Assembly (NCBI GenBank): GCA_903813345.2
Contig: CAIIXF020000001.1
Span: 13,144,001-13,208,000, forward strand
DNA length: 64,000 nt
Reading direction: 5' to 3'
DNA from: Owenia fusiformis
Lineage: Eukaryota
Of this stretch, positions 1,556 through 31,934 are shown in pieces; positions within the stretch are counted from its first letter, which is position 1, and every line of letters starts with the position of its first letter. The notes under the pieces were generated by a model that saw only the letters and a program-made list of their open reading frames with translations, was not told the DNA's origin and ran no database searches. Position numbers and translations under genes: made by a program.

Positions 1556-1589
1556 TATGCTAAAAATGTATCAAAAAGGTGAATCTGTT

Positions 1590-2765
1590 GGTTATAGAAC
1601 TCTCTATACAAGAGATAGTCCTTCAAGTGTAGACATGTATAAAGAAGACCGAATAATTATCCGTATAGAAATTTCTATACGAAACAAGCTACTCATTCAT
1701 ATAGAAATTTCTATATTAGAGAAATGGTTGCCGTTAAGAAATGCTGCCTGTATAGAAATTTCTATAGCAAACTCGATGACTATACGTATAGAAATTTCTA
1801 TACGAGGCAAACTAACAATAGAAAAGATGCATACTTGGAAATGGTTACATTTCTTCATGTGTATAGAAATTTCTATAGCATACCCTATAACTGTCCGTAT
1901 AGAAATTTCTATACGAGGCAAGTTAACAATGTATATAAAAATATCCATACTGGGGAAATGGCTGCATGGCTGGCTGCATGGCTGGTATTCTCGATTACTA
2001 TTCGTATAGAAATTTCTATACGAGGCAAACTAACAATAGAAAAGATGCATACTTGGAAATGGTTACATTTCTTCATGTGTATAGAAATTTCTATAGCATA
2101 CCCTATAACTGTCCGTATAGAAATTTCTATACGAGGCAAGTTAACAATGTATATATAAATATCCATACTGGGGAAATGGCTGCATGGCTGGCTGCATGGC
2201 TGGTATTCTCGATTACTATTCGTATAGAAATTTCTATACGAGGCAAACTAACAATGTATATAGAAAGATGCATAGTTGGAAATGGTTGAACGTATCATGT
2301 GTATAGAAATTTCTATAGGATACCTTATAACTGTCCGTATAGAAATTTCTATACGAGGCAAACTAACAATGTATATAGAAAGATGCATACTTGGAAATTA
2401 TTGAATATATCATGTGTATAGAAATTTCTATAGCATACCCTATAACTGTCCGTATAGAAATTTCTATACGAGGCAAGCTAACAATGTGTATTAAAAATAT
2501 CCATACTAGGAAAATGGCTGCCCGTATAAAAAATTCTATAGCATATCCGATAACTGAAGCAAAGAAATTTCTATACGAGGCAAGTTAACAATGTTTATAG
2601 AAATATCTATACTAGGGGAATGACTGCCTGTATAGACATTTCTATTGCATACCCTACAATTGTCCGTATATAATTTTCTATACGAGGCAAGTTAACAATA
2701 TATATAGAAATATACGAGGCAAACTAACAATGTATTTAGAAATATGTATACTACGGAGATGGCTG
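1590..2765. repeat. Left subterminal array of palindromic boxes (C)GTATAGAAATTTCTATAC(G)
   Basis: 14 exact copies of the TAGAAATTTCTA core plus degenerate copies. Units are ~106-123 bp, with a near-identical 218-bp higher-order repeat (starts 1785, 2003, 2221). Confidence 0.95.
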
Positions 2766-3348
2766 ACCTCATGACAAGGCAGCCGGGATGAAAACAAAAA
2801 AGATAACAAGGTATCAAAGTAAGCAGGTACGAGGTACTTTATAAGCATTTCTTTAGCCGGTCTAGTGATCTGTTAATTGTGTCCGTTGCCCATTTTAGTG
2901 ATAAAGGTGGTGCCATGGTCCCTAATCTCCCTATTAGCCACTGCACTTAGCATGTCTAAAAATCTTTGTGAATAACTGTCACAGACATGTGGACTGAACC
3001 CTGCCATGATGAGAACTGCTATTCTAAAAAGACCTTACATCACTTCTTCAATATAAACATGTTCACATTAGACAAAATGGTCTGTATGAATTTGTATGTG
3101 GCCACGAATCACAACCATAATACTTTAATTTTAGGCTGCCTCTATCAGAATACAAAATGACTGTCTTTATAGAAATGTCCACATGAGACAAGATTGCGAT
3201 CCATAAATAAGTTTTCTAGTTGAACTACTTTCAGTAACCATGAATGTTCTTAATCAGTAATAACTACAACTTATACTAATATCCTATGTCGTATGTGCAG
3301 TTATCTTACACAACATTGGTCATTTATAGAATCATACTGCGCCAAATC

Positions 3349-6300
3349 TCAGCCTACCGTCACTTCCAAGACCGTTATATTACGACCAGATGTGAGCATC
3401 ATATCACGATGATATGGAATGTTGCAATGTTTTTGCGCTGATTTCAGAGAAATAGACTGATCGATGTGCTCTCGAATGTGTGCTTTCAATATTGCAAGAT
3501 AAAGTAGATACATCAGATTCATGTATTGGTATAAGAAGATGAAGTCGAAAATTAGATCAATGTAAACCTCGAGGTTGATAATAAAAAGTATCCAAATGTC
3601 CTTTGTTAGATCATATGGTATAAACTGTCCCCAGGGTTGAAAATGGAAATTTTCAGATCTGCAGCGATTCACTGAAAAAAGATAAACAAAGAATTATTAT
3701 AATGATTAGCTTCAACTAATGCCTTGAAAATAAGTACATGGGTGTGATGGGTTCCCATTGCAACTTCTTAAAGTTTGTTTCCACTTAAATATTGTAATTG
3801 AATGGCTATCACTCTGAAAATGGACTTCTTAAAAAACATATGGAGTGAATTCAATGATTCTAACCATTATATCTCTAAATAATATGTCTGTAACAAATAG
3901 GAATTGATAATATGGTAGTAATATAATGAAAGTAATGTTAGCTTTAAAGCTTTTGATTAGTAGTTTTCATTACTACATTATACAGGGCGTATCAAAAAAA
4001 TGCAACAAGTAATTATCTCGTAAAATTCCAAGACTACTGATGACTACATGAATTTCATTTGATGTACCATAAAGCCACGTCTCTCCTCTTTGCAATGATA
4101 TGTCATTCATTCACATGTGGTAATGGTTGGGTGAGAAATCCTTCCATTTGCACAGTGGGTCAAAATCGACTCTGGGCCAAGTTTTAGATATTGCAAAAAT
4201 CAGTGCAAGGGCTAATTGCCAATGGAAGTTCCTCTGACTTCAATTGTTGTGACTTTTTCTTTTGGAGCTATCTCAGGAGCATCTGTGCTCACAATTCCTC
4301 CACCAGATATTGCAAAACCTCGAGAAAGAATTGCCCATGGGCTGCTTTTCTCTGCTTTAACCCACGGATGACTCCATGCATGACATGGAGAGATTAGGGC
4401 TTCTTTATGTACAAAGAAGTGGTGGCAATTTTGTATAGGATGTATTCTTGCAAGAGTATGAGTATGAATACTTTACTGTCTATGCCACACCTGTCACACC
4501 TTCTTCCATTGGGCCCTATGCCCCTTGTACTGACTTTTGCAATGTTTAAAACTTGGGTCCGAGCTGAAATTTGACCCACTTTACAAAATTAATGGTTATT
4601 CGGCCAGCCATGACTCTCTGTGGATGAATGATATTCCATTGCAAAGAGGAGTAATTTGGCTTTTTGGTACATTGAATGAAAAGGATGCAGTCAGCATTGG
4701 TTTCATGTTTTCTTCCAATTTTGCATCGGGCTCCGTACACTGACTTTTGCGATGTTTATAACTTGGTCAAGAGCTAATTTTGGCCTACTTGGCAAATGGA
4801 ATGATTACTCGCCCAACCATGACCAAATATCAATGAATGATATATCAATGTAAAGAGGAGACACATGGCTTTATGGTGCATTGAATGAAATCAATGCTGT
4901 TATCACTGGTTTTGTGCTTTTCCGAGATAACAATCTGTTGCGTTTTTTTTGACACGCACTGTATTATCAAGAATTATAAAGCATACCGATTTTCTGCCTC
5001 AACTTCGTCGTTTTTCTTTTCCTTTGCACATTTTCCTCAGAGCAGGGCGTCCTTTTAGAAAAGGTTTTCTGAACTTCACCTAAATTATATGCAAAAATGA
5101 TTGATTTGAAATTAATTTAAAGTTGATTTTGAAAACTAACACATAGTTTAAATATATTTTTCATAATAGACTGAATCCTAGACGAAGTTTGTTCTATGCA
5201 TTCGTTTATCGACTCATGTTATATTTGAACTAATTTTTTGTACTCATCACGTGGTAAAATTCAAATTGAAAGGGAACATTTTTACCTTTATCTATACTGT
5301 TACTTGTTTTGCTTTGTCCCACTCTCCCACGAGATTGTTTTTTTCTTTTAGCAGATTTGTCTGGAAGCATGGATATAAGCCTGATAAATTATTAAATAGT
5401 TAAATAATACACAATACAAAACAAACCTTTCACGTGGAAATTTGATTAACACAATGTTTAGGAAAATAACTATAAGCCCATAAGGACATACCCTACGTGA
5501 TATTAGGCTACAATCACGTGTCACAATTACCCATTTGAAACAATAAGTGCCTATGTTCGAATAAGCATTTCTTCATTAATAAATCGAATATGCATGGTGT
5601 TTCATATATATGCACCCCATTAAAACTCATACATGTATCATCGCCAACCTGTCATGATTTGACTATCAAAGGGGAATAAATCTTTCGAAATATTTTATTT
5701 TAACATAGCGAATGTAAAATAACTATGAATTAATCTTTCCTAAAAAGTTGCAGTGTGATACGAGGCTACAATCACGTGTCTAAAAGAATGTTATGACTGA
5801 CAATCTTTTTAATACATGAAGTATTGATTTAATATACCTGTCCCTTGTGTGCCTCCCTTCCTTTTAGCAGCTGTCTTTTTACCCACCACAATCTAGAATG
5901 ATAATTCGAGGTCAAAATCAGATGACTATGAATGAGTTACAACAATCATTACATCATGTAACCTGTTAATGTAACGATATAATTATAAGATAAAATAGTT
6001 TTGTTTTATTGCAGAAATAGTTTAAACTATGCATTTCCATTTTCTTTCACCCTTCCCTTTGGCATTTGTGCTTATATATCCATATAACCAAGATATCTAA
6101 TCCTTTATGTTTAAATTAGAGTATTCTTATACAGGCATGCTAGTTATTTCGCAATTGCCAGACATTACTAATCTGTCGGCAAGCAGAATAATCATTAGTA
6201 TAATTATATTTACAATACAATGGTATACAGATGAAGAAATGAGAGGCTTGGGATACAGGGTATATCTTGATGAGAGGAATACAATATATCTGCCCAATTG

Positions 6301-9300
6301 ATCTAGGGTCGATTTATCTTGTGCGTTATTTACCTTTAGTACTACGGAATACAGGATATACATATGTACTTGTATGTATACATTTACCCAGCACACAAGT
6401 GCTCCTTTCTAATCACACCACTCACCGTTGGTTGTTCTTGTTCTATTTCTAACATTCTGACGACTTCGCTTGGAATGGCTGACTCTATTGTGGGTTGCTC
6501 CTCATGTGACAATTTGGGCAATCCGGCAAACATCCACTGTGTTTTGAATTTTAGCAGATACTGATTGATGAGTGCATCGGATGACAGAAAAGCTCGTATA
6601 CGCTTAATATACTTTTGCCACCAGATATATTGACTGGCGTCCCTCTGGTCACTGTACAATGGTCGTAAGAATCGTTGGTTTCGTTCTATCCCATCGATAT
6701 TCAATTTTTCAAAATTCGGTGTCTGCAAAACTGGCTCCCCTTTCGGAAGCGTTTTTAAAATGGAAGGAGCCTCAACCCACGGTTGCGTATGGAGCCCCTT
6801 ATACAGTAACTTCACGCCGTTTGAGGTCTTAATAAATTTGAAATGCAAAGGTTTTGTGTGGTGCTTTATCTCATTAAGATGTGGTTCTATCCACTTACGG
6901 AAATTGTAGACAACATTTATTCTTTGTCCGTTTTTCAGCAGATAAAGAAGATCATCCATTGTCTCTGCCTCTTGTTGTCTGAGACTATCAGCAATCTTGT
7001 GGAAATAGGAATCGATGTCCTCATGCGTGTGTCCCACTATCAAAAATGATAGTTCAATCTACAAATAAACCATGCGTTCACTGTTAAAAACGTAACTTAT
7101 GTAATGGACGGGGAAATGCATGGGCAAATGTTAGTTGTTCCAAACGTATTTGAGTTGAGATATTTTAAGGAGTAGAAATATTAATATTAGCATGACGATT
7201 GTGTATTTTTCAAACAATGATAATGAAAAAGAATTGCATCTTAAAGGAGTCGGAGATTGCAATTCTTTTTTCAACGAGTCTCTATGTGCGGTAACTCAAT
7301 AAATGCAGATACAGAACATACATTTCTGAAGAATAACTACAAGCATACTCTGGATTGTGACATCATTTTTGTACGATTTCTCAAATGCATAGTTTAACTG
7401 CTTATCGTCGGGGGAAATATACACATATTCTAGTCATCGATGGTATCCATTGGTTCGATTTTGAGTTAATTACCTCTTTAAAAACGCCATTCCTAATAAG
7501 GAGTTCACAGAATCCAAGCATGAATCGATTTTTGTTCTCCCTCCAACAGTTATCGGCTTGTAGATAAAGGGTGGGGGGCAATTTGTTACCCTAAAAATCA
7601 ACAATTAATGTACAAGTATTTGTACAAACACTACTATTTAAAACTGTCATGTAATTTACATTTATAGTCTAGGTTCTAACCCCTGTGATGCCCCACTGCC
7701 ACTAGACATTGGGTTGATAAAAAAGAAAAAAGGCTACGGTCTTCAAGCAAGACTAGATTAAAGAAAACATGTTTTTTTATGAATTGGTTATGAAAATCTT
7801 CAGCCTGTAGACAATTATACTATAGTATATATGATCACATACCATTTTTGCAGCGATTGTTTGCAACACGAGGAGAATAACGTTGATTGATAGGTTGGAA
7901 TCATGCGGGTATTCACAGGTGTCAATAAATGTCCTAAACAACCTATGGCCATGAGATATCACACCAGTGATATGCGTCTTTAGCAGGTCTCCCTGTCCAA
8001 CGGATTTAGCTTTAGAGCCTATAAGATGTGGGAGTGACGTTTTGCCTGAAGAAATATAAATAAATCATGCGAATGCGAAGTTCAGAGAGATATCTCAATT
8101 GGAATCTGTCATTTTTTATTATGACTCATTTTCATTTATGTGTATCGGACGATAACAATATACCTTTATGTTTGGTAATAAGCGTCGATAAAGCAAAACA
8201 GTATAGAGTATAATGCCCAGCTAATGCCTATGTCACATTTGCTCCCATTCATTGGCCGGCGCCCGGCCGATTGTCGTTTTTTGGTCAGAACTGATTTCAA
8301 CTTGCCTTAGATTGAACAAACATTTTTGTAAAGCATGAACAAGTTCTCATGAGCCTACACATGACCTCAAATTGAGATGTGACCTTCAATTTTGAACAAA
8401 ATATTCAATTGGCAATGTTCCGGCCGAATCGGAGCAAAGGTTACTCAAAGTTAGGCACGATATATACTATTTTTAATTTTTAACAATCTTTATAGCTTTC
8501 CGATTAGAATTCCGTTACGCGTTACTTCCATCGGATATGATTTATATGTTAAGTTGTGATTTTTAAGAAAAAATCGTGTACATCAAAATACGTATGGAAC
8601 TGTTACATGTAAATAATAAAAACTCTAAATTAATTTACCTTGATCCATGCCGTCAAAAATAATAGAGAGGTACTGTGTCGGTTCATTCCTCGATTGTTCC
8701 CGTTTATTATAATAATATTGCCTCTCCATCCTGTAAAATAAAATATAAATTGATAAATCCCCATTTTATATATTCGAAAATCATATTCAATATCATATTA
8801 ATTATATCTAATCGTATCAAATTGTATTAAATCGTTTTAAAAACGTAAATTAAAGCGTGGAGCGGAGATCGTGTCCATGTATTAAGAAACTTAAGAATAT
8901 GCGTTTTCAATACCTGGGTTTGATCTTTGTAAATGTGTCTGTGCTCGTTACAATGAGATAACAAAGATCGATAAGTTGTTTAGTAAAATAATAAAATATG
9001 ATATTTAATTGCAATCAACGAAACTCAGTGTTAGTTTGTTATTAAAACAACGGGCTGGTTGTTGAGAGTGGGTGCGTGGTTTTCGAATAATTAGATACAT
9101 GAAACCATATAGTCCTATGTACACAATGTACAGTAATGCCTGGGTAACATGTGCCCAGATTCATCGCCCGTCGCACGGCCGATTGAGTATTCTGTCCAAA
9201 ATTGTATAGTTTTGACCAATATACTCATTCGGCCGCGCCCGGGCCGATGAATCGGAGCAAATGTCACCAAGGCTAAGTCAGGTAATCAGACATTATACAT

Positions 9301-12300
9301 ATGATTTTTTGAATGTATTAGGTACGTATGAAGTCCTTTACTCCAATGTAAATTCATTCTGATAACATAATAGCATCTTTCTGTTTCACCTCTCAGGGCT
9401 GAGGAGAAATGAGATTTCATGGTTTACCATGGTGATGTAAATTTGATAATCAGAGATTGTTATGTGTAATGCGAAACGCATGCGGTTAAACCAGTGCATT
9501 CAATCCTTTAATCATATACAATACATTGATGGATCAAGATGCACGAAACATGTTTGTTCTTCAAATTCAAATAAAGATATATAGTCCAGGAGTAAACGGA
9601 TGAAAAACCTAAGAAATTTAGCTGGCCATAAATATTGTTTCAATGACAGAATAGATTATCTAAATGTTTCCGTTTGAAATTCTATATCTCTGTTCATATG
9701 AGTATACTAGTAGATAGAATATCTATATCAGCTACTTGAATGTGAAAGCAACTTTTAATACTTGTAGTTAAAATGCAGAGTTTTTACATTTCAATTAGAG
9801 CATAGGCGTGGGGGGGGGGGGGGGGGTTGCAATTGGTGATCGCCCCATTACCATGAGAAGAAAAGAGCTTTGAAATGATTTTTATTTGACGCTTCTAGCT
9901 CAATTTATTATAAAGGAAGTTGCATAAATTTTCGTGAAATTCAAGATAAATCTTAATTGTTGGCTTTTTATGCCACAATCGCATCCCCTGACTGAAAATG
10001 GATTTTTTGGCGATCGCACAAGCCCCCCCCCCCCCCAATTTAATTGTGGAAAATGTCAAACATTTTTTTCCATGATTACTTGTCAAGCGTAGGTTCTATG
10101 CGGAGGATGAGTAAGGACCCCGATTAGCAATATACTCATCTAATAATATAACCACATTTAAGGCAAACATTGCTTCTAAAATATGTGAACGAAATACGCC
10201 GATGATGAATAAAATACTATAATGCTCGGTATGCCTATCTACAAAATTGACGAAAAGTAAAAATATAAAATAAATATATAAATGGCACACGCTTCTAAGG
10301 ATGAGTAAAATGTCCCTATATTACGCAAGCGAAATCAGTTAATATTAATATAATACAAGTGACAATAAATAAATTAATTAATTGGTCATCATTATCTACT
10401 GAATCAAAGGATATAGAAATTACTCTGTGCTTGGAGAGATGCAATCGGTTACCTGACCAACTCTGAATTCGAATGAATGGGTATTAAAATTGACCAAATC
10501 GAAACCAATTCAAGACAACGCAACTTTTGCGCATGCACTACTATAATATGTTATTCAAATGGGAATTGACCTCCAGTTGACATTTCAATATTTGTGTTAA
10601 TTTCGTGAAGTCCTACCAAAATCAAAGACATAACGAAATGTCCTAGGAAAGCGTACTTGTTACTCGATATAGATAAAGGACCAGGCTTACTGTTATCACC
10701 TTTGACGAGAAGAATTTTCTTCAGAGGTTTATTGACGAATTGCATCTTGCAGCTGTTGTGATTAGAAATAGTCTAAAAAGTGTACGTGCGATGATAGCTC
10801 GAGTTTTTTGCCGAAACCTAATTAACCTAGCTATCATAAAATGAATTGTCTGTAAAATGCAATTTTCGAATAACAAATTGAACTAAGGAACAAAGTTACC
10901 AGCAATTTCGCTCGGGGACTTATTTACCCTAACGATCAGCAATCATTTATTCCAATGACTTAAAAGTGTAAATACTTACATTTGCCTATTGTTATGCTCG
11001 TTGAGTGCCTTTTTGATAAGTCTTCTTCGTTCTGGGTTCAGAGTTCTCTCAAGGCGTCTGTTTAGACTCACACATTTATCACATTTAGTGAAACAGTTTG
11101 TCTGAAATATAAACACGATTTTACTTGATATATATTAATCAACATACAAATTCCTGACAACGAACTTCACAAAGGATTTCAATGAGCCACTTTACTAAAC
11201 AACTTTAACCAGCCTAGGAAATCTTTCTATATATCTAAATTAACGAGATTTTTTCAGCGCATTTTTTAAATTTATGGATCCGTCACTAAAATTGTATGCT
11301 CTTTGAGATGCTGTAATCAATAGTAACACAAGTTACCAAACTCCAGAAAGAAACTGATTTTACAGTATGGTTCACAGCTAAATGATCTCACCCTGTTGTA
11401 AACTTAAGGTTCACATGTAAAGCTAAAGATTAATTACTAAGCTTATTGAAAGCTTATTCTGTGCTATATTATATAAATCACGGGTGACTTTTTACATTTC
11501 TAATGATTTTGCCATACTGCTATATTATACTGAGAAGGCCTATCTCACCATGGTAAAAAGGCCAAATATCAAATGTAAAATAAATAGCGGTCATATTTCA
11601 GTACCCTTTCATTTGTGTTTTGAGAAAGTGAACCATGATTTTGAAAATGATATGAATAACATTGCTAAATGTAACGCATTTTGACTAGTTTTTATTACTA
11701 GTTGCTGAAAATCGCAAGAAGAAAGCTGCCATTTTAAAATCGACCTTTTATATCTTTAGACCTTCAGTGTGATAAAAAAGCTATTGAAATTAAAAAACAT
11801 TATAGCAAATTATAGAGAATTTCTAGCACTTGTGATAGAATGGATTGCCTAGCTTCCCCTTCGTGAATATGCCTGTTTAGGCTAACAGAAGTATGTCGCG
11901 AATAAATTACTCAGTTTTATTTGCACCCCGGGTGTTGCACTAATAATATGATATTTTGATGTACCATAAATAATTTTAGCCGCGCATATCTGGTTAGTAT
12001 TACAATACCAAATTATGTAACATGTGAATTTGGAGTTTCAGTAAGTTTAAATATTACATTTAGATGGATTATTCACTTGCAAAACTTTCAAAATCATAAG
12101 TATTCAGATTGAAATAACTTTACAACTTAGTAGAGAATGTGGTAAAGAATTAATTAATTATTACAAACCCCTTTATAATAAGGATAACATGACCTAATTC
12201 TTGTTTGGGCAAGGTAAAACTTTATTTTGTCTAAAAATTGTTTACAAGTAAACAAAGCTAGTTCCTACTCCCTACATGTACGTACACTACAATTAGTTCT

Positions 12301-15063
12301 ACTTGACACAGAGCCAAGCCAAAGTTCAAGGGTGAACTTGAATTACCTTGTATACAGATACACGCGTGTGTGTCATTAACATTTAATAGAGTACTATATA
12401 ATAGAATAAGCACAGTTGAGTACCATAAGGTAATGATTATTTGATAGTCTAAATCAAATAAGCTGCAAAGGGAGTGGGATTGGCTGGTATTTTAATGTAA
12501 ATATATTTTCTACTTTTTATGACGTAACATTTATCAATTATCGCAAAAAAATTATGATATGATGTAACTTCGAATTGAAAAAGATCTAAGGCAATCTAAG
12601 GATAATTTTGGCTTAAAGGTACGGAAAGCTGCGAAAAGTTACGTATCGATATTAAAAGTTGAATAATAAATGCATAACGATCATGAACCTAGTATCAAAT
12701 ATATCAAAGTTTGGTCCTGCAGTTATAATCTTGAAATGTGGTGGATCTTAAAAATCTATTTAATAGTGGGACTGATTTAAGTGGCAAAAGGGCAATTCAA
12801 AAGTGTTAATTGGGTCCGTTATCCCTCCCCCTCTCAGAGAATCATACCTTGAACGAAGGTTGGATGTTTTGCACTCGGTCCCAGTTAAAGTTAAGGTCTA
12901 CACCTTTCATTTTTGTACAAAAGGTCATTAAGGTAAGAATAAGTAGAATATTCAGTGGTATACATTTCAAATTTGCAAAAAAATCCATATTTTCCACACC
13001 AACCTAAAAGTTCGCAATGTAATTGCAAGGTGGGCTTTTTAATAATGGAATTAATGTTGCACATAATTATAATTGAATGAATTTCTTTTTGTTAATTTGT
13101 AACATAAATCTTACGCTTACCTTTTTAATCTTAAGATGGGGAAACATGTCAGCCCACATACGCATGAAACTTGTCTTGCTGAAAAAGTTTCGAAACTTTT
13201 CTACTCTTTCGCTTTTGTATCGAAGGTACAGTCCCTCTTTCCTCGTCTTGTAGGGAAGCATAACATCTTCTGAATCGGGCATTCGGTCAGCATGATAAGT
13301 CGCATATTCTTCTAACCAAAACTTAGCATCGTCGTAGAGTGATGTTTTACTTCTGCGCCTTTGATAACCCGTTGACAAGACTCCGTTTTCATAATCTTTC
13401 ACTGATTTATAATAGAAACCTTTGCTTATATAAAAAAGTTGGCAAAATGCCTTTGAACATATTCCCAATCCATTTTCAATCATTAAAAAATATTTTCCAT
13501 TATACTGTTTTGCGTCTCTTAATTTCTGTATCAACCATTCGTGTCTAGATTCAAAATCCTTCGTCCATAAAATCTCCCTACATCTACGAGCCATGTCCAT
13601 GTTTACATTTAAATGACATTTGGAAATGCAGCATTTCTTCATATATTTAATCTGGAGTAATGATCCGTGTCTTAAGCTTTTTTCCAATATCCTTGAAACC
13701 GTTCTTTCACGTTTTGGGGCTATAAAATGAACAATATGTTATAAATTGACAAGATTAAAATGTGCAATTGTATAAAATGTTAAATGAGTAAATTTGAAAT
13801 GGCATACTTTCGCTGTGACATTATTTTCTAAACATGCAATCTGAAGTCTAACATCACTCAAATCGATGCAGATAGAATAAGGGATGTCTCGTCTTGAAAC
13901 AAGACAAGTGCATGATCAAAAAGTAGTCTCCTGAAAATTTATGTGTATTTTTGTATTTTCTTATATGTACAAGCGTTGCTAAGGAGCATTTAAATATATA
14001 TATATGTCGGAAAATGTGTTTGCCGGAAAAACGTTATTTGAACGTCAGGTGGAAGGAAGTGGTCACTGGCCTTAAAAGTTATCCTTCCGTCATCTTTCCC
14101 AGGAAATAAATCATTTCGAATACAAATGTTGTTGGATAGAGACTTAAATGACTGACTAAATCGCTGATAAACTTTTCAAATACAATTAGTCCCTATCTCA
14201 CATTAGCTCCGATTCATCGGGCTGCGTCAGGCAGAATGAATAATTTGTTCAAATCAAATGCATTTCTGAACAAAATAGTCAATCGACCGGGCGCCTTTGT
14301 TAGATCAGAATATTACTCACCTGTTGAGAAAGAAGTGATGTTGACTTTCGGGGTAACACTCCCTAAGTCTTCCGGAAGTAAATCTTTTAAGCTATCTATA
14401 GGAGATGTCTCGTCGTCATAATCGCTAAAGCTATCGTTCCATAAGTCACTTTTCATCTGATTTTTGAATGGCGCAATGGGAGTACTGGTTAATTGTTTGT
14501 TTTCGTTATGACGGATTTTCGAAGGTGTTTTAACCGTATTTTCGTATTTGCCATCGTCGTCGCAAAAATCAAATACATCTAGTTTTGGACTATTGGCGCT
14601 TGTATCCATATCATCTTGACAGATAAGTGAAGTACCAAGTGGCTGATCATTGTTTTCAAGAGATATTCCAAGAGGGTCGTCATTGTTGTCATCGTTCGCT
14701 ATATCGAGGGATATTCCCAGGGGATCCTCAGATGTTGTGTTTAAAAGGAAGCTTTTACCCTGAAAATCGAAATTGAATTTTGTTAAATTTTACTGGTTTC
14801 ATATAAACCTCAATTCCTAAAATGTCTTGACAAAGGAAAAAAAGAGCATGTATTATGTAAACCAGGTAGAAAACACAGTGCTAGCCATAAAACCATTAAC
14901 GCCGGAATCGATGATTATTATAATTTCTTTCTTTATTTTCATGTTAGAATTGGCATATCAATTCATTACTTACCGCATTGTTGTCAGCACCAGGTATTTT
15001 GATTGGGTAAATGTAGTCGGATATTAATAGAATGAGACAGACATATATGGTCCATCTATCCAT
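3349..15063 (-). CDS. Intron-containing DDD transposase, DUF7869/Sola1-like (about 840-946 aa)
   Basis: Phase-compatible GT-AG exons: 15063-14974, 14759-14321, 13719-13121, 11101-10980, 8730-8639, 8045-7843, 7590-7474, 7058-6426, 5892-5838, 5360-5286, 5079-4987 and a tentative last exon 3671-3349. Motifs in order: FTKCDKC, YLSIIFDGMDQ (D1), KTSLPH, HDSN, LYLQADNCWRENKN (D2), FLIVGHTHEDIDSYF (D3), then a basic KR-rich tail. The first and last exons are less certain than the core. Confidence 0.85.
3983..4961 (+). mobile_element. Degenerate Tc1/mariner-type element with a transposase remnant, in a transposase-gene intron
   Basis: TIRs CAGGGCGTATCAAAAAAATGCAAC / GTTGCGTTTTTTTTGACACGCACTG, flanked by TA on both sides, with long internal inverted repeats. 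The remnant SSDFNCCDFFFWSYLRS (~4229-4280) resembles the mariner/Tc1 SPDLNPCDFFLWGYLK motif. Confidence 0.8.
8222..8452. mobile_element. Palindromic MITE family copy 1 (Harbinger/Tourist-like), internally expanded
   Basis: TAATGCCTATGTCACATTTGCTCCCATTCATTGGCCGGCGCCCGGCCGATTG...GAATCGGAGCAAAGGTTAC matches the copies at 9135, 14187, 16178 and 24090. Confidence 0.65.
9135..9274. mobile_element. Palindromic MITE family copy 2
   Basis: About 140-bp imperfect hairpin ending GATGAATCGGAGCAAATGTCACCAAGGC. Confidence 0.75.
9584..10020 (+). repeat. Dispersed ~440-bp repeat, copy A (copy B at 20961-21454)
   Basis: GTCCAGGAGTAAACG...AGAAATTTAGCTGGCCATAAATATTG...GGCGATCGCA is collinear and highly similar with 20961-21431. 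Confidence 0.85.
14187..14296. mobile_element. Palindromic MITE family copy 3 (partial)
   Basis: TCACATTAGCTCCGATTCATCGG...TGAACAAAATAGTCAATCGACCGGGCGCC. Confidence 0.6.
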
Positions 15064-21900: not shown

Positions 21901-24900
21901 GAATGGTCATTAAAAATAAAAGTATGTGTATCTTGCATCATTATGAAATAAAATCACAACCATTTTTAGGGATAAATATGAAGTCCCATGCGCAAAAGTT
22001 GTCAAAACATTTTCAAAGTCGTGAATTACTTACAACTCATCTCTAGACTTAGATACCCTTTGAGACAGCAATCCATTTAGGCTCATTCTATTTTCAAGAT
22101 GACACCTAAATTCAACTTAGTTTTGAAGTGTGAACTAGGCATGAAGTATAAACTACCCTAATAAATTAATTATCTCATGTTTATTTGATTTTAACAATGG
22201 CCATTGTCTCTATCAAAAATATAATTATACCAAATGAAATTTGGTACTCCATTTTCCATTTTAGAATATTTAACTTGAAACTGGAGTAAATAGTATATCT
22301 GTCTGTGGGTAGTATAGTACATGTATTGTATACTAGTAACATCTTATTTAGTCTTGAATACTTCAAAGAACACTAGATATTTGCCTTTAAAAATACATGG
22401 AAACAGACTGCAATCTGTCTATGAGAGGAGGACAGTGAGTTCACTCTAGACTAAAACCAAGAAGACAAACCCATAACTTACATCTTATCTAAATAATCTG
22501 TCAACTTAAACTCTAACGAGTTTTCCAGAGCTGATCAGATTTGATCAGAACTTTGCAGTTATCTGGAGAACTAATAACATTCTATGTTGAATTTCGAATC
22601 TAAACTAAAATGCCTCGTGGCTTGCGCTTGACATCTGAGGCACATCGCCACGTGGTATCTCAACTTACCAAACCAGATGTGAAGAGGAAACGTCGCTCTA
22701 TAACAATACTACAAATCTTATTTAATGGGTAAGATTCTTTAGTGAGCCAATGTGTGATATATTATCGCTGTCACTATCGAAGACCGTAAAGAACCATACT
22801 TTAGAAAATTACTTAAAACAGACATGGATTTTTACAGCAAGCATATCATATTAAGAGCTTGCGCTAATTGTTTGGGTTTGAATACTGATCTTGGAAGGAG
22901 ACGACTGTCACCTGGGTTTTGTAATATTGTCTGTCAGAAAAATATACCATTGCATTGAACAGCGCTTATTTACGTGTCCATCCTTAATAATGTTTGTTTA
23001 TAAATAAAGTTGACCTGATTAGTTCATGTGGCCATAGAGGCACAGGTTGGTGTTGTGAAATACAACGCTAAACCATTACAACAGATTACAGGTTGATTCA
23101 GTGAGCTTTAAATCAAGTACCCTAACAAAAGGCCAAAACTTTATGGAGAGATAAGTGTGCAGTGTGAGATAATGACACTTGACATAAATACCTTGAAAAT
23201 AGTATAATCACTGTGACTGATCATGAAATAATTTAACGACTTCAATCTACAACAGCTACTTGACACCTATCTGTAAAGGAATCTCTAAGTATCTCTGTTT
23301 AATGAAACAGCACAGCAGGCATGCTACATTGGATACCCCATGAAGCACCTAGCACACAATTCTAATTAGACACATTCAATTCAATTAATTCCTTTATAAT
23401 TTCATAAAATACACATATAAAGGTTTAACAGGTGACATCATCTCTGATGTTTATACCCGTACATATGTTAAAGCATTATATTACGAATATTAAGAACAAG
23501 GTTATGTGAAGTGATCAATCCCCACTCAACCATATCAAGATTGGGTTCGGTCTAAAAGAAAATCTAAGAGGGAGTGTGGGTGGAGGAGGTGCAGCACAGA
23601 TATAAAGCTAAGAAGGCGTGATTATGTGGTCGTAGTGGCGTGGTTTTCGGCTCTTGCTTCTATACGCAATCAGGCCCTTGGTCGGGGGGGGGGGGGGCTT
23701 AAGGGGTTGGGGGGGGGGGGGGTCGTGCGAACATCCCCTGGAAAAAATCGTCTAAATCATTTTCATCAATTTTGAAGTGATTTTCGGCATATTCAAACAA
23801 AATTGTCAAAAGTAAACCTCCTGATATTTTTAAGAAATCGGCCCCCCATTGGCTCATTCCGGCTACGGGCCTGTGTAATCGAACTTCTCGTGAGATTTTA
23901 CGACAACTGCTACCTCGATTGAGCATTTCTAGTTTGAATCTATTATTATTAATCTAAAACTCGATTATTCTAATTTGTACACATTTCAAGTGCATCAGAT
24001 CAGATAACCAACCAGAACGTTTCTTAAACTAACTTCATGCATAATCTAAACAGGTGGCATGTGGGTGCGTTTACAATCTTGAACAGACCTAATGCCTTGG
24101 TCACATTTGCTCCGATTTTCACTACGGCGCCCGGCCGATTGACTATTTTGTTCAAAATTGAATACTATATTGAGCAAAACACTCAATCGGCCGGGCCCCG
24201 GCCGATGGATCGAAGCAAATGTGACTTCGGGCATTACCAGATTAACCAAGTTTTACTCTGGTCAGATATAAACATTAAACATATGTGTTTATTCGTTTCA
24301 TGATGGTCTCGTTGCATTTTTCAAAACTATTATTTCAGATCCAAACGGTCCCAAAAGATGGACACGCTGAATCATCGATGAATTCAGACTTACAAACAGG
24401 CAAAGAAGTCAATGGAGAAACTGATCTTGCGGTTAAATCACATCTTATTGGTATGTTCCCTGGTCATTTTGTTTGGATTTTGAAATGTTTATTTTCGAAG
24501 GAACAGTGTATATTGTACTTAATACAAATGAAAATAATTCTACACTTTTTCAATGTGCTTTCTACTGCTCTACTGCTTTCTACTGACTGTTGTTTCATAT
24601 TGTTTAATAATAATAGGACAAACGGAAACTATATACATTTTGATAATTTTCTTACTTTTTTCTTTTGATCTAAAATTATTACGGGGAATGAAGTTTCATC
24701 TGTCTTATGCCGAAATATCGACTCATGCATAGCATTCTTGGTCTTACATCAAATTCATCACCAAAGTCCCATGTCCATTACTCTGAACCTTCACTATTTA
24801 GGTGACTTCATCACCGTCCCGATAGAATGTTTGATATCGCCATCAGAAGTCAACAAAGTGAGAGATCTACACCAATGGCAAGTTGATAAGATTATGAAGT

Positions 24901-27900
24901 CCATCGAGGCAAGGCCAGATGCAAGCTTTACTGTAATGTTGGGGAACATCGTGTCTCCCAAGCCCATCAACAAAACTGCTGTGGAGGGAGGCCTTCACAA
25001 AATTGAAGTTATTGGAGGACATCATACCCTAGCAGCGCTCAAGAAGCTGCACGAAAAAGACGGTTGCAGTGATGAGTCTAAATACAGCAAATGGTGTATT
25101 AAGGTATACTAAAATGTAAAGAATAAAGCCTTTCTCAAGTCACAATGTAATGGTTTAAAGTATTTTCATAATATATAATCAAAGCATATAATAGTATATA
25201 ATATAATCATTTACTTTTTATACCCAGCGAGCACATATTACAAACCCCATCAATTATTATCATCATCGCACAATACAAGAAAGCAAAGTGAATGTTTTTC
25301 TTGTTAGAATCGACCAAACATTAATGTGATTTTTATTCAAATATCTTACATATTTTAAAAATCTACAATACTGACGTTTGAGAGTATAATGTAATCCTCA
25401 GGTGTATTGGGGCCTGTCTAACACGCAAATCTTAAAACTTGGCATGGACCACAATGAGGTGATGGGAATGCATCTCAAGAAGACCTACGTGGACATGGTC
25501 AAACTTTTTAGAAGGCAACTTATGAAGATTCTGGATACGGACGTTGTGCCAGATGTATTGCCAAAACCAGTGAACGCGTTGTGGAGGAATACGCTATGCT
25601 CTATATTAAGGATAGAGGTAAACTATGATTATGAATATGATCAAATAGCATTCGATAAGGAACAAAACCCAATAAAAGTGTTTAATATAATGTTGTCTTA
25701 AAAAATAGTTCAATTCGCTCATCAACTCTGATTTTGAGAGAACGCGAATTGAAAAGAATAAAGTGAAACAGAACTTGATAAATCTAGACCATATACTAGA
25801 ATGACAATAAAAGTGCAATTTAACAATTACATTGTTGGAATATATTTTGAAAGGGAAAGTATCGTGGATGCAGCAGTGATACTTCTTTTATATGTTTCAT
25901 AATCAACATTCAAAGTGCATTATGTTACCAAATGATGCAATCTCACGTTTTCAGTAAGTTATCAAGAAGTTTAAGCTTGCATGTAAAATCTAAATGCCAA
26001 CCTATACGTATGACCAATCGCCCATAGAAATGCATCGCTTTAATATGTTACGTTCAGGTTTAGGTTGTGAGAAACATTGCAAGCTTGAACTCCCTATTGT
26101 ATCTTTCTACACGTTCATGTTATATTTTAAGGACAAGCAGAAACTCTCTAGTAGTTTCCAGAACTACACACGGATAGCAGAGCTTCCGAATCATGTATGG
26201 GACGTGGTAAACACCTTCCTGAGTAAATGGGAGAATGGGGACATTAAGGGACAACCATCTGCACCTTTAAAGCAAACGGCAATGATAAATGTTACAAGGG
26301 ACTGCTGGCAACACCTTGAAAAGGCAAGCAATGGAGAGATAACATACAAAGAGTTTCTCGCTATCAAGAAACCTGGCCAGAAAAAAAGGTTGGTGTAAAC
26401 ATTTTTTTATGAAAAGTCTTTCATTGCAGTCTTACATTGTAATCTGATCATGTGTTCTATGATGCAGGATATTTCCAACATAAAATACCATTTTTTCACC
26501 CCAATGTAAGCCTAGATGTTGAGCCAGGTCATGTCATGTCATTCGTTCATTTATTGTTTTATGCCACATATGCCCAATTTTTATACAATCGATATTCTAT
26601 TGCATTGTTTTCAGTTGTTTTGCACTGTATATATTCGTTTATTTCAGATCTAATTCTTCAAGAGCACAGAATACAAAGAAGGCAGATGTGGAGGATAGTG
26701 ACGGATGCATTGATAGCGTGAACCATACGGTAAACATTTGCAATTACCGCTGTCATATACCGCTGTCATATTTCCCACTCTCCTTTTGGTCTACATATAA
26801 CATGCAGTTAAATTATACATGTAAACAAACACCCGAATATGGAATGGTACTTGTGGAACAGTTCACAGCATTTTCTTTTAAATGGGTAGATTTGCATTGC
26901 TCATTATAAGCTTTGCAACATTAGGACTTAAAATGTATTTATTTTAGAGTGACAACGCGCAACAATCAACTGGAACGAAAACAAATTCGAAAGATACATT
27001 GGTTCATGCCCTCCAGTCTGAACTAAAGAAAAAAATATCTACCGTCAAAAAGGTAAGCTTTACATATTTTTGAAGATAAATAAAAGAAAAACGTATAACA
27101 TGTACATTTTCTGACAAAAATACATCAACATCCTTCAAGTAGTTATTGTCAACATTTAAAGTCTCGAACATTTATAACTTTATCATTTTACTAACCTTAA
27201 TTCCATGTCTACTATTAGTAGCACAGAAACGGTGAGAAAACATGGTTCAACTTAATTTTTCTTGACAGTTTACCTTTAACGACACTATTTTTAACAGCAT
27301 ATCATTTTTCCGATTTTCAGTTAGAGAGGCAGTTAGATGAAGCATTGGAGAGGGCGTGTACTGCGGAAAATATAGCCAGTGATCTCGAATTGAAGTTGAC
27401 CAAAGTCAAAGGAAAACACGAAAGGGTATGTTCTATCTATAGGAACAATGAAACATTAATATTACTGAAATATCTTGTCATCCAATTCACGGATAATGTG
27501 ATTGTAACAATTAGTATGATATCAAGCTGAATGAGTTTAAAAGTGTACGATAAAAATGATTTCAATGCCGTATAAGTATATGCTATTCCACATAAGGTAT
27601 CAACGTATCCTGTTTTGTCCTTTGTTTATGTAAATGAAAATGATCGTATCATTATTTGCAGAACGTTGATGAAATCAAAAGTCAGCATATTGCAGTGGAA
27701 GTAGAATTGCGTAGAAAGTTGAAGGACACACGTGAGTGTATTGAGAAGAACGCAACGAGTTATTCACAAAGGGTGGCCTCATTAGAACACAAGCTGCGAC
27801 AGGTAATCTTTGGATCACCATTGGCTTTCATTTTGATCGAAAAGTGGTCAGCTATCACTGATGGATCTAGCCCCCTTCTTAAATGAACCCAAGAAGCGCG

Positions 27901-30653
27901 GATTTATTATCTCATTTTGCATTTGCTCTTCCCTTCCTTTGTTAGCTTCTGGATCCGCCAGTGGCTATTGATAATAAAATCCTTTCTATTGCAGAGAATG
28001 TAAACACTGATTCAATTATTAGGAGGCTTTACAAATAGTCAGATTGGGAGCTAGGGTTTTCAAATTGTTGAAGGGAATTGTATGTTTACTGCATACATTT
28101 TCCGCACCTATAATATACATGGATCATTTTTATAACTTCCAGATGAGAGAAAATACTATCATTCCAAATGCAGATACGTTTACTTTCACTCCCACTCTAG
28201 AGGATGATGAGACGCTATCTGTGGAAATACCTTTAGGTAACAATCTTACTATAGTTTCTCAAACTGTGCAACGTTTTTTTGTCAAACTAGTCTGATCCAA
28301 TCCATCTTTTACAAGAATCCAATTTTTAATCTCTACCTAGTTTAAGCGACATTTGAAATTTAAAATACTGCTTCAGGTACACCTCGGGGGTACACCTGTA
28401 CACATTTTTTAAATGCACTGTAACTTCGGAATCATCAGAAAGCAAGTAATAATATAAAACAGTGTCGATACATTAGAGCATTTGTTTTGGTATTTATTGA
28501 ACGACCCTCGTATATATTATATAATAATAAAGATCGATTACATTTCAGCTAACTTGGGCCAAGAGGATGAAGATATACCACCATTAGATAAACGGGGTAA
28601 GTATCTAAATAAAGTGAAGTCCAACCTCCTACATTTTAACTGTTAAGATCTGCTCCAATACAAAACTACACTGTTACACAACCTTCATAGACCACGTGTT
28701 ATAAAATCATAAAAAGTGAAATATATTTTCTTATATTGGCCAGATAATATTTTATTTTATCCCATGGTTACAAGGATAAAGATCGAATATCAGGTGAAGA
28801 TATATTTGATATGTGGATCAAGATATCATATTTTAGCAAAAAATCCAAAAAAACATCGAATATCACTTCTCGAAAATTGATATTCGATGGTTTAAAAAGT
28901 AATATTCGATCGATTCAAAAGTGATATTCGATGGTTTAGAATTTTTTCGCTGGGTTAAGACTTCCCATGGAATAAACGGACAGTCCAATGGTTTTTCAAA
29001 AATATCAATTATATCCACTCAGGGATATCGATATCTTCACTCATTATATTCGCTGCGCTCACTCATGAAGATATCAGTATCCACTCATCGATATATCCAC
29101 TCATGGATATAAATGATATTTTTTCAAAACCATAGGATATTCCTATATTATTAGACTTATTTTAATTTGTATAACTATCATATACATATGGGTAATATGA
29201 ATAGAAAACCACTAAAACTGATGAATATTCAAGTTTAACAATGAGTTGAAGAAAATAGAAGACCGCTTATTTTCCTACTTTTCTTTATATTCTACCATTT
29301 TCTAGCCTGAGCAATGTCTTAGTATGCAAATAAAGTGAATATGATGGTCCAAACTTGGAAAGTCGTGTCTTGACAAAAAAAGAAATAAAACTTCAAATAT
29401 ACATTCAATTTGTATTGTCCTTATCTTCCATGAATATAATGAACTGATATGGCATGCTAGAAAATTATGCGACCCCTAGGTTATTTTTCTTTCCAACAAA
29501 ACCATCTGAAAAATTCTTTGCTTGGAATATGACAAGTATATTTCTTGATGAGTTGTCTCTCTAAATATGCTTTGCTTTTATAATTTCAGGATATTGCCCA
29601 ATTGTTTCTTTATGTTCTTTATGTGTACTAAAATTGTCAACAATTTATTTGCAGATTCCAAAAGGAAGTCAGTACAAGAAATATCTAAAGTTTGCAGTTC
29701 AAGTAAGTAGTCCTCTATTTCTCAAAAGTATGGCTTCAAAAAAGGTAATTTTCTGAGGAAGCACACACCAGTTGGAAAATGTGGTTCGTATTAATTATAC
29801 TGATGCCTTAGGACGGATCATATGCAACTGGTCAAAACGAGATCAAAATTGCCACCTTTTTTATATCAACATATAGCAGGGTATAATTTAAAGCAGAATG
29901 AGAACAATACAGTTTATGTATGTTGTTTGGAAAGATTATGTTATCTAAGCTTAACAGTGAAGCAAAAGTATATTGTGATTATATTCTCCAAAATAAACAT
30001 ATAAATGAAAATAAATGAACACGGTAGTAGTCGTGTTAAAGAGAAAAATATTGATCGAATATACACATTATATCATGAGAAATCGTTACATGAACATATG
30101 TTATATCTGTATACAATGTATTTTAGAGAAGCGAGCGACCAGCACATCTTCTGGAGAGATACAACCAAAGGTAAATCAGGTGTAACCACATACAAGTTAA
30201 ATTCTCAATAAGGTGCTATAACCAATTCCACATTTAACACAAGATTATAAGTTTATTTTACGTTTTATGTATGTAATTTATGTATAACCTTTATGTTAGT
30301 TTTGACGACTCGAGAGCGTCCATGTTATATGATCGTCCTTCTCGTTCCAGGTCATATGCATTAGATATGAAAGAGATATCTACTTTGCTGTGTTAAAAGG
30401 AGACAAGATCACATATTGCACTCGCAGAATTGCAGCAAAAGCAGACATTAACAACGTTGGAAAATTGACGCCACCAATGCTGAAGGTCAATGAATTTGAC
30501 AAGGCAGACGTGTGCGATGTGTCACCTAATATGTATCGAATCATAGACAATAAATACGTTAAGTCTGTTACTAAGACAATTGTATTCACTTTCCCTCATT
30601 TCACTTTCCCTCAGTTTTTATCTTATTTATCTTCTTTGGTTTGTCAACTTTAG
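15974..30653 (+). CDS. Transposon accessory protein with a ParB/Sulfiredoxin-like domain and coiled coil (about 743 aa, 16 exons)
   Basis: Phase-compatible GT-AG exons: 15974-16111, 16949-17111, 17283-17356, 24339-24450, 24802-25103, 25402-25617, 26132-26388, 26648-26729, 26948-27052, 27321-27425, 27662-27802, 28143-28236, 28549-28596, 29655-29702, 30127-30170, 30351-30653 (2232 nt, no internal stop). ParB-N-like pattern: VPIECLISP..VRDLHQWQVDKIMKSI...IEVIGGHHTLAALKKL...CIKVYWGLSNTQILKLGMDHN. Heptad-rich exons at 26948-27802. The domain call is by eye and the exact 3' end is uncertain. Confidence 0.75.
16178..16326. mobile_element. Palindromic MITE family copy 4
   Basis: ATGCCTGGGTCATATTTGCTCCGATTCATCGGCCAGCGCC...GGCGCTGGCCGATGAATCTGAGCAAATGTGACCCGGGCAT. 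Confidence 0.8.
17762..18923. mobile_element. Probable old non-autonomous TIR element in an intron
   Basis: Imperfect inverted ends ACGT...CTGGGGACAATTT / AAATTGTCCCCAG...ACGT around an AT-rich non-coding interior. Confidence 0.45.
20961..21454 (+). repeat. Dispersed repeat copy B, including a hAT-like MITE (21186-21454) with CATAGGCATAGCCA / TGGCTATGCCCCTG ends
   Basis: Collinear with 9584-10020. The MITE end also matches 63245-63330 in reverse orientation. Confidence 0.8.
23671..23873. mobile_element. Small MITE with CAGGCCC...GGGCCTG ends and poly-G tracts
   Basis: Inverted ends CAGGCCCTTGGTCGG / CCGGCTACGGGCCTG. The flanks CGCAAT and TGTAAT may be a decayed TSD. Confidence 0.55.
24090..24237. 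mobile_element. Palindromic MITE family copy 5
   Basis: TAATGCCTTGGTCACATTTGCTCCGAT...ATCGAAGCAAATGTGACTTCGGGCATTA. Confidence 0.8.
28971..29152. repeat. Fold-back repeat with internal ATATCCACTCA sub-repeats
   Basis: Inverted arms ATGGTTTTTCAAAAATATCAATTATATCC / GGATATAAATGATATTTTTTCAAAACCAT. Confidence 0.6.
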
Positions 30654-31194
30654 TAGCATAGTTACTTTTCATTGGACATATTTTGTTAAAAGTGAACAAT
30701 TTAAAAGTACGTTAAAAGTAAGAATTGTTCATACATTAAATGTGCAATGAATCATTAGTTTTAATTTTCCAGAAGAAGGGATTTTGGTGTTAAAGTGATA
30801 TATTTGCAGAAGCAACAATCTCATTATCTTACAAATAAAACAAAATGCAGTTTAAAAGTTTGTCTTTCACTGTGCTCTTTCTAAGTGAAAGCGGGGGGGG
30901 ATTCCAAAATGCCATGAATTCAGCTTATCATGAATTCAGATATTTCAATGACTATTAATCAGAGAAAACTGGAACTATACAGGTAAAATCTATCTATTTT
31001 TCTGAGGTTTGACAGAAAATCACCAACAAAACAATTGAGAACAAAGCAAAAGTGTGTATCATGTTGAGCATGTTCAAACGTAGGATTTTGATGTGCAGAA
31101 ACTGTTCATTGACAGGTTCATCATATACTTAGAATGTTCTATGAACTATGTAAAATTAGCTCCTTTGAGAATGCATGTTTTAGTTACACACATT

Positions 31195-31865
31195 ACCTGT
31201 ATAGATCTTCCTAGATGAAATTCTAGGGACAGGTGTCGGGTATGCTATAGAAATTTCTATACAGGCAGCCATTTCTCTAGTATAATTTTTTTACAGAAAC
31301 TTGTTAGCTTACCTCCTATAGAAATTTCTATACGGATAGTTATCGGATATGCTATAGAAATTTCTATACAGGCAACCATTCCTTTAGTATAGAAATTGTT
31401 AGCTTGCCTCGTTTAGAATTTCCCATATAGACAATTATTGGGTAGCCTATACAGGCAACCATTCCTTTAGTATAGAAATCTCCATAGAAAATGTTACCTT
31501 GCGTATAGAAATTTCTATATGGACAGTTTTCGGGTATACCATAAAAATTCCCCTTGTAAATTTATTACTATTACATTGTCAGCTTACCTCGTATAGAAAT
31601 TTCTATACGGACAGGTATCGGGGATGCTATAGAAATTTCTATACAGGCAGCCATTATCCTTGTAAAGATATTTCTATATACATTGTCAGCTTGCAATCGC
31701 CTCGTATAGAAATTTCTATACGAACATGCACAGTTATCGAATTCGGAGGCACTATAGAAATGTATCTGCATGCAGCCATTTCTCTAGCTAATAGGAGATA
31801 CTTTATGAGTGGGTAGCTTGTTTCGTATAGAAATTTCTATACGGACAGTTATTGTTCGCTATAGT
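31195..31865. repeat. Right subterminal array of palindromic boxes, inverted relative to the left array
   Basis: 8 exact TAGAAATTTCTA cores. Spacer motifs (CAGGCAGCCATTT, TTGTTAGCTTGCCTCG) are reverse complements of the left-array spacers. Confidence 0.95.
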
Positions 31866-31934
31866 TATTATTATTCATGGGGTCATTTCTTCTGGATTGA
31901 AATCTGTGCTTTTAAATTGATTTTTAGGAAACAG

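Follow-up and report, generated by a model that had tools for sequence, protein, structure and literature searches.

A giant DNA transposon of Owenia fusiformis with palindrome arrays at both ends and an accessory gene for a protein of predicted ParB-type fold

Introduction

The maize En/Spm transposon encodes a second protein, TnpA, whose presumed role is to contact repeated motifs near the termini and so to join the ends of the element. These motifs are 12 bp long and are not perfect palindromes, and TnpA is not ParB-like. Outside En/Spm, the pairing of ends tens of kb apart and the role of second genes in giant DNA transposons are poorly understood. Here we describe an element of the annelid Owenia fusiformis that shows the same logic, a second element protein together with repeated subterminal motifs. 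It occupies 1362–32116 (30,755 bp) of a 64,000-nucleotide stretch, called the window below (GenBank assembly GCA_903813345.2, contig CAIIXF020000001.1, positions 13,144,001 to 13,208,000, forward strand), whose numbering is used throughout. It is a single cut-and-paste DNA transposon bounded by a target-site duplication (TSD), and its accessory gene encodes a protein with a predicted ParB-type fold. A first-pass annotation, made from the letters of the window, had proposed such a gene and palindromic boxes as a module.

The nearest descriptions come from algae. Giant Plavaka transposons (EnSpm superfamily) of Bostrychia moritziana carry PAG3, a gene whose product has a ParB-like N-terminus with 7BNR_B as best HHpred hit (Petroll et al. 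2025, bioRxiv 10.1101/2025.02.11.637652). According to that preprint, PAG3 is a fusion with a 2-oxoglutarate (2OG)-dependent oxygenase, tandem inverted-repeat arrays adjoin the gene, and self-binding is proposed (10.1101/2025.02.11.637652). The Owenia locus resembles this case, as so described, in combining a giant eukaryotic transposon, a ParB-like N-terminus and nearby repeat arrays, and the same chain, 7bnr_B, is also the top VIA-align match here. Unlike the oxygenase fusion of the red algal Plavaka elements, the Owenia protein has a probable coiled coil and a small C-terminal domain, and no enzyme domain. The Owenia element is of DUF7869 type, with a 4-bp TSD, arrays at both termini and an animal host.

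In the 21.5-kb element Sola1-1_Ec32 of Ectocarpus, a ParB-like/DNA-methyltransferase accessory gene and the transposase lie on opposite strands (PMC12477816). The Owenia element likewise has a ParB-like accessory gene opposite the transposase in a giant transposon, whereas the Sola1-1_Ec32 protein is fused to a methylase, and palindrome arrays go unmentioned in the passages of that article drawn on here (PMC12477816). Our literature search, with supplements outside its range, found algal cases only and no ParB-like accessory gene in an animal DNA transposon. Earlier algal ParB-like cases were reportedly treated by Iyer, Abhiman and Aravind in 2011. A ParB-like gene with repeat arrays in a eukaryotic transposon has already been published for algae (2025), and the Owenia case is apparently the first in animals.

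The bacterial systems ParB-parS, Noc-NBS and KorB-OB offer a further comparison. The parS-type sites bound by ParB-family dimers are short palindromes whose size and symmetry are like those of the Owenia boxes. Like these systems, the Owenia locus has a predicted N-domain and DNA-binding fold, and its candidate site is a multi-copy 16-bp perfect palindrome. Unlike them, its protein has no Pfam or hidden Markov model match and no GERRxR, the motif that holds the cytidine triphosphate (CTP)-binding arginines of ParB, and its sites are dense arrays at transposon ends in a eukaryotic, intron-rich context.

Results

The 16-bp palindromic core TATAGAAATTTCTATA is present in 22 exact copies, 14 in a left array (1664–2468) and eight in a right array (31246–31841), with none elsewhere in the 64 kb. 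The exact 18-mer GTATAGAAATTTCTATAC occurs 11 times, eight copies being on the left (1663–2469) and three on the right (31591–31842), where 100 shuffles gave an expectation of 0; all 11 extend with their flanks to a 20-bp palindrome, CG...CG. When up to two mismatches are allowed, 30 copies are found, 20 left (1593–2682) and 10 right (31246–31841), all within the arrays (chance expectation 0.21, shuffle maximum 2). At up to three mismatches, 33 of the 35 matches fall within the arrays or at their edge, the other two lying elsewhere (3168 and 10412). The first-pass annotation had counted at least 22 cores (14 left, 8 right) of an 18–20-bp perfect palindrome, seen only beside the terminal inverted repeats (TIRs). 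The search for the 16-bp core returns this count exactly, every 18-mer extends to 20 bp as expected, and the confinement holds in the window for exact copies and for those with up to two mismatches.

Box and repeat scans place the left subterminal array at 1593–2750, with 14 exact and six near-exact palindromes (two or fewer mismatches), in tandem units of 107 bp (81% alike) and 218 bp (93% alike). Its inner boxes (2525–2750) degenerate to 1–3 mismatches. The right subterminal array (31246–31841) holds eight exact and two near-exact palindromes, and its units are inverted relative to those of the left array. Most boxes stand in doublets or triplets, 35–36 bp from start to start. In a fixed-register comparison of left with right doublets, the boxes agreed at 98.2% of positions, the 20-nt spacer that separates the two boxes of a doublet at 73.6% and the flanking 25 nt at 48.4%; this covers exact 36-bp spacing only (seven of nine left and two of three right listed doublets, the three with 35-bp spacing having been dropped), and because the doublets were picked by their boxes the contrast between box and spacer is inflated. 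Simple homogenisation is argued against by the fixed length of the spacer and by the mutual inversion of the arrays.

Contig word depth in DNA run X1, which is not equal to copy number, is 520 and 792 in the right-array bins and about 320–550 in the unique interior of the element. The nested high-copy repeats have depths of 17,134–181,213 in the same run, and the right array is 20–350 times lower. A genome-wide satellite, which the first-pass annotation had named as a check on the arrays, is unsupported for the right array in this one run, where its depth is near that of the unique interior.

The accessory gene (24378–30653, + strand) comprises 13 exons and encodes 605 amino acids. The exons are 24378–24450, 24802–25103, 25402–25617, 26132–26388, 26648–26729, 26948–27052, 27321–27425, 27662–27802, 28143–28236, 28549–28596, 29655–29702, 30127–30170 and 30351–30653. 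All 12 introns are GT-AG, the open frame has no internal stop, and the exons of P0001 and of the paralogue P0002 map onto the gene. Over 616 columns aligned with P0002, 240 are identical. Together with P0015, P0002 represents a second, divergent family of Owenia fusiformis with the same architecture. The window product shares 48–53% identity with these two proteins over exons 2, 3 and 4 and 47–48% over the last exon; against P0002 the identity is 38–56% in the ParB-type domains and 38–53% in the N-domain.

Four parts can be told apart in the protein. Exons 2 and 3 (24802–25617) encode the N-domain, with the motif IEVIGGHHTLAA, as judged from the family alignment and from the comparison of the paralogue model with 7bnr_B. 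Exon 4 (26132–26388) accounts for the greater part of a helical region that two-domain structure alignments match with the DNA-binding (helix-turn-helix, HTH) domain of ParB, KorB and Noc. Exons 6 to 8 (26948–27802) encode a long helix, a probable coiled coil by the helix of the paralogue model and by translation, and the last exon (30351–30653) a conserved C-terminal stretch of about 100 residues, by its identity to the P0002 and P0015 C-termini.

The fold was examined on an AlphaFold model of the paralogue P0002, made from a 16-row alignment, and not on one of the window protein. The predicted local distance difference test (pLDDT) score exceeds 90 over most of residues 1–250. In a Foldseek search of the PDB, the 12 listed matches at E ≤ 1e-3 are without exception chains of either ParB or Noc (E 5e-5 to 1e-3), the top one being the Caulobacter ParB-parS entry 6t1f. 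With VIA-align, P0002 residues 1–120 superpose on Myxococcus ParB chain 7bnr_B with Z 11.6 and a root-mean-square deviation (rmsd) of 1.8 Å over 91 residues; sulfiredoxins give Z 7.4–8.2 against the model and a GmrSD enzyme Z 2.9. Residues 1–259 align over both domains with KorB, pNOB8 ParB, Noc and ParB-parS for 181–202 residues at Z 8.9–10.7: KorB chain 8qa9_B over 192 residues (Z 10.7, rmsd 4.0), ParB-parS chain 6t1f_B over 181 (Z 8.9), pNOB8 ParB over 199–202 and Noc over 189. The DNA-binding part by itself reaches only Z 4.6 against the Spo0J-parS entry 4umk. A single helix of 96 residues spans 295–390 of the model; the AlphaFold model of the C-terminal piece has a mean pLDDT of 44.9, too poor for a fold search. 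By these models the N-domain belongs at fold level to the ParB/sulfiredoxin superfamily, and the region behind it is predicted to be a ParB/KorB-like helical DNA-binding region. The family motif in the N-domain is EV(I/L)GGNHTRxA, which reads GGHHTLAA in the window and GGNHTLAA in P0002.

Relatives of the accessory protein were found in other animals. A complete HMMER search of 1.84 billion representatives gave 13, and a profile word search gave 41; named hosts are the sea urchin Diadema antillarum and the bivalves Mercenaria mercenaria, Sinanodonta woodiana and Dreissena polymorpha. No accessory relative has a Pfam domain above threshold. Seven pattern matches in viral contigs included no accessory relative, and 70 in a metagenome scan led to two, L001 and L002. 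L002, a metagenome contig of 6.7 kb, has a homologue with the same exon pattern, and its closest protein comes from the clam Mercenaria. This contig begins inside a tandem repeat of 32 bp (L002:2–126), which contains the quasi-palindrome GGAATTATTCC and precedes the homologue by 2 kb; a repeat in this place is suggestive, but too thin to count.

Two nested repeats were noticed at the accessory gene. A very high-copy repeat resembling a miniature inverted-repeat transposable element (MITE) lies at about 24028–24260, some 120 bp upstream of the accessory start codon, and has related copies at 9118–9285 and 16179–16325. Its contig word depth rises to 181,213, many RNA loose ends fall at 24090–24092, and the related copies in the element are inverted repeats. 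It could supply or disturb the accessory promoter. The other, at 28800–29240, is a high-copy repeat within an accessory intron, with tandem motifs of 16–22 bp (TATCCACTCATCGATA and a partner) and a contig word depth of about 60,000.

Transcription of the accessory gene was followed in raw reads of three RNA runs, 6–12% of each run being read. Over its 3′ two-thirds RNA depth is low, 0.3–2.4 and in one orientation only, at 25.8–28.6 kb and 29.8–31.5 kb. Because every read departs from the window sequence at several positions, the RNA comes from a different copy or allele. The evidence that this gives for transcription of some accessory copy on the + strand is weak.

The transposase gene (6387–14789, − strand) was recognised from open reading frames (ORFs) and a match to Pfam DUF7869. 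Its candidate exon ORFs, with approximate splice sites, are 14316–14789, 13070–13738, 10979–11134, 8628–8765, 7780–8064, 7405–7590 and 6387–7058. Three successive exons cover DUF7869 (PF25273) without a gap, at profile positions 5–54 (E 4.7e-14), 55–93 (E 6.8e-18) and 93–188 (E 6.9e-25). By this full-length domain match the predicted transposase is of the DUF7869-type DDE family. Its motifs are DGMDQ in an upstream exon, LQADNCWRENKN and GHTHEDID. In the protein atlas it lies next to clusters of DUF7869 proteins from molluscs and arthropods; a word search for longer transposase relatives gave none at E ≤ 1e-5, and our literature search found nothing that names 'DUF7869'. Among the 35 element ORFs scanned against Pfam, convincing matches are confined to the DUF7869 exons, and no ParA-like gene is among them. 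In the N-terminus of the transposase no DNA-binding domain can be recognised. Both genes run outward from the element's middle, the 3′ end of each facing an array, and both are apparently intact.

The ends of the element are similar in inverted orientation. Both begin with AAGTCCTGACTATTT, and 38 of their first 40 bases are alike. The tips 1362–1519 and 31959–32116 are 87% complementary (158 nt), and the identity is 79% over 222 alignment columns. By this complementarity the left TIR tip is 1362–1591 (+ strand) and the right one 31842–32116 (− strand); both are free of boxes, so that each end has a box-free tip of about 230–275 bp and then an array. The first-pass limits, 1590–31865, fall inside the element, whose true span is larger. 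The TIRs claimed at that stage are present, and they are accompanied by 4-bp TSD copies of ACAC at 1358–1361 and 32117–32120, seen in the reconstruction of the flanks and in the consensus of RNA loose ends.

The inverted alignment reaches beyond these limits, from 1282–2437 to 32169–31124. Element ends at 1282 and 32169, as a first alignment gave them, were ruled out, the outer 80 and 53 bp being parts of a foldback repeat that hosts the insertion. This host repeat lies outside the element, with its left part at 1282–1361 (end alignment, RNA and flank alignment) and its right part at 32117–32179 (flank alignment, and loose ends at 32116 and 32179 in the three RNA runs). It is small, about 140 bp, has the ends GTTATGTAC...GTACATAAC, and is abundant and transcribed in the three runs. 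RNA reads over 32117–32179, from the empty host repeat, stop at 32116, a loose end common to 59–75 reads per run; each run has 30–42 reads with a joint to the opposite strand at 32116, and loose ends at 32179 number about 210. Deleting one ACAC from the flanks within the window restores a symmetric foldback arm. The limits 1362 and 32116 are set by this RNA break and by the restored arm. Just left of the foldback repeat, inverted copies of about 38 bp at 876–913 and 1244–1281 flank a T-rich stretch of 330 bp. The first starts with the foldback terminus GTTATGTAC and the second retains only its GTAC; the pair may be another foldback member or a rearranged end.

A further copy of the element is indicated by P0001, an NCBI protein of Owenia fusiformis from another locus (1597 aa), part of which is 99% identical to an accessory exon. 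Its gene model runs on into a transient receptor potential (TRP) channel, and it represents a second copy of the element elsewhere because a TRP-channel gene is absent from the window. Since a 99%-identical copy exists at another locus, the accessory gene travels with the element. The fusion of P0001 with the TRP ion channel is either an annotation chimera or a genuine read-through transcript. Upstream exons of P0001 map to 15974–16114 and 16949–17113 of the window.

Other repeats lie to the right of the element. Two inverted arrays of a 16-bp unit, GTCAACTCAACCCCA or its complement, at 62931–63070 and 63729–63869, are about 800 bp apart and look like another foldback-type element with tandem-repeat arms. 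Two tandem arrays with units of 139–145 bp and the common motif ATGGCGGCCATTTT, at 34217–34540 and 61997–62400, probably belong to the subterminal regions of yet another transposon family.

Discussion

We consider it plausible, with a rough probability of 0.45, that the accessory protein binds the boxes as a dimer, through its ParB-type helical domain, and that the complex on both ends pairs the ends or recruits the transposase. Contact with the palindromes would be made by the helical domain, in the manner of ParB, Noc and KorB dimers on their own short palindromes, and the dimers would coat both subterminal regions. The coiled coil and the C-terminus would then bring together ends that lie 30 kb from each other, or recruit the transposase, like TnpA of maize En/Spm. 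What the analysis establishes is the anatomy of the element, the modelled fold, and boxes that are enriched, confined and better conserved than their spacers; binding to the boxes, dimerisation and bridging we infer. Several points favour this reading: the fold, a site of fitting symmetry and size, boxes that are confined and conserved, a gene that moves together with the element, and the algal association.

Several observations weigh against this reading. Pfam gave nothing for the accessory exons of the window, even at E 10, and the ParBc and ParB HTH profiles gave 0 ParB-family matches in 40 relatives at E ≤ 1. Sequence and profile searches of the PDB with phmmer and hmmsearch gave nothing relevant for the accessory protein, and the family motif differs from the GERRxR arginines of ParB. 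The structure compared is that of a paralogue, RNA depth over the ParB-domain exons is about zero (≤0.15 in the three runs), and only one complete element was seen. The conservation of boxes relative to spacers is overstated by the choice of doublets, and with 218-bp units 93% alike the exactness of the left boxes could reflect recent tandem duplication. A canonical ParB by sequence was rejected, there being neither a Pfam or PDB match nor the GERRxR arginines. Because these arginines are missing, CTP-gated clamping and spreading are not expected. Of the module proposed at first pass, the presence of both components in one element stands, and the ParB likeness of the protein stands for its fold, by the paralogue model, and fails for its sequence; loading and spreading in the manner of ParB is unsupported.

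The main rival, less likely in our view, is that the boxes are subterminal sites of the DUF7869 transposase, an alternative already raised at first pass, and that the ParB-fold protein does regulation, chromatin work or anti-silencing. Arrays of this kind are most often explained by repeated subterminal transposase sites, which hAT, P, Mutator and IR/DR-type elements have, and the Owenia arrays lie symmetrically at the two ends, beginning directly after the TIR tips. The transposase also has a long N-terminal region (ORFs 13070–13738 and 14316–14789) of no recognised fold; since no DNA-binding domain can be recognised there, it stays a candidate binder of the boxes, a further point against binding by the accessory protein. 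Subterminal sites of known transposases are, however, short and asymmetric as a rule, whereas a perfect palindrome of 16–20 bp suggests a symmetric HTH-type dimer, which matches the accessory fold. The transposase could instead be served by conserved non-palindromic stretches of the units, for example after the second box, and in algae the inverted-repeat arrays go with ParB-like genes and not with one transposase family. It is improbable that the arrays are foldback-type tandem repeats without a dedicated binder, kept uniform by unequal crossover or gene conversion, with the palindrome at most structural. Foldback and Galileo elements do have long TIRs of tandem repeats, the left array is tandem with its 93% identical 218-bp units, and the inner boxes at 2525–2750 decay to 1–3 mismatches as neutral sequence would. 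Inverted arrays are nevertheless beyond simple unequal crossover, and yet their boxes are 98% identical against 74% in the adjacent spacer of fixed length; eight of the 10 right boxes are exact despite many indels in the surrounding units.

We give similarly little credence to the idea that the ParB/sulfiredoxin domain is an enzyme or nucleotide switch, such as an NTPase, a nuclease or a DndB-like regulator, acting on element DNA or host chromatin while a host factor binds the boxes. The GGNH(T)R motif is presumably nearer to sulfiredoxin or DndB-type motifs than to that of ParB, and in algae the ParB-like accessory protein is joined to an enzyme, a DNA methylase in one case and a 2OG oxygenase in the other. 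DndB (PF14072) is the sole recurrent Pfam match among the relatives, below threshold, in five of 13 and seven of 40 members, which also tells against a ParB-type binder. The best of these matches has E 3.7e-4 and 20.1 bits against a cut-off of 29.1, and the window exon has none; membership of a DndB or DGQHR-type family was rejected, as no relative reaches the Pfam gathering score. Against an enzyme, the Owenia proteins have no enzymatic partner domain, the arginine of the motif is replaced by leucine, and the best structure matches over two domains are ParB, Noc and KorB, not sulfiredoxin or GmrSD.

The element can also be compared with named transposon superfamilies. CACTA/EnSpm elements have CACTA termini, a 3-bp TSD and an EnSpm-type transposase. 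Membership there was rejected: the termini read AAGTCCTGAC..., the sequence ACAC forms a TSD of 4 bp, and DUF7869 is the sole Pfam family of the transposase. The CACTA comparison drawn at first pass is kept as an analogy, and the termini, TSD and transposase family are not those of CACTA. The TSD of Sola elements is said to be 4 bp (Bao et al. 2009). The 4-bp TSD and the accessory gene on the opposite strand recall Sola, and in these two features the element may be likened to it.

Another lead is DUF3723, a conserved accessory gene of the fungal Starships, which are likewise giant mobile elements (PMC9156397). In a feature search of the protein atlas, DUF3723 clusters adjoin P0002 residues 1–235 with scores of 0.95–0.96. 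The Pfam profile DUF3723 (PF12520) matches one of 40 relatives, weakly (E 0.16), and our literature search found nothing that links DUF3723 with ParB. A relationship of DUF3723 to the accessory protein is no more than a lead.

The locus offers a clean and testable pair in a tractable annelid, a predicted ParB-type protein and a perfect palindrome present 22 times at the ends only. With relatives in a sea urchin and three bivalves, the module may be widespread in marine invertebrates and yet unannotated. Taken with the algal reports of 2025, the proposed binding would, if true, mean that very distant lineages of eukaryotic transposons share ParB-like self-recognition, whether it arose in them or spread among them.

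A more far-reaching idea, speculative and of low probability, is that the element carries a self-contained centromere-like module. A ParB-fold protein without a CTP switch would nucleate on the arrays, and its coiled coil would condense the 31-kb element into a complex of paired ends, possibly tethering the excised element to chromatin until reintegration as a counterpart of plasmid partition. On this idea the protein would share ancestry with algal PAG3, the ParB-methylase proteins and perhaps Starship DUF3723. If this were true, giant eukaryotic transposons would have arrived repeatedly at ParB-type 'self-marking' as a solution.

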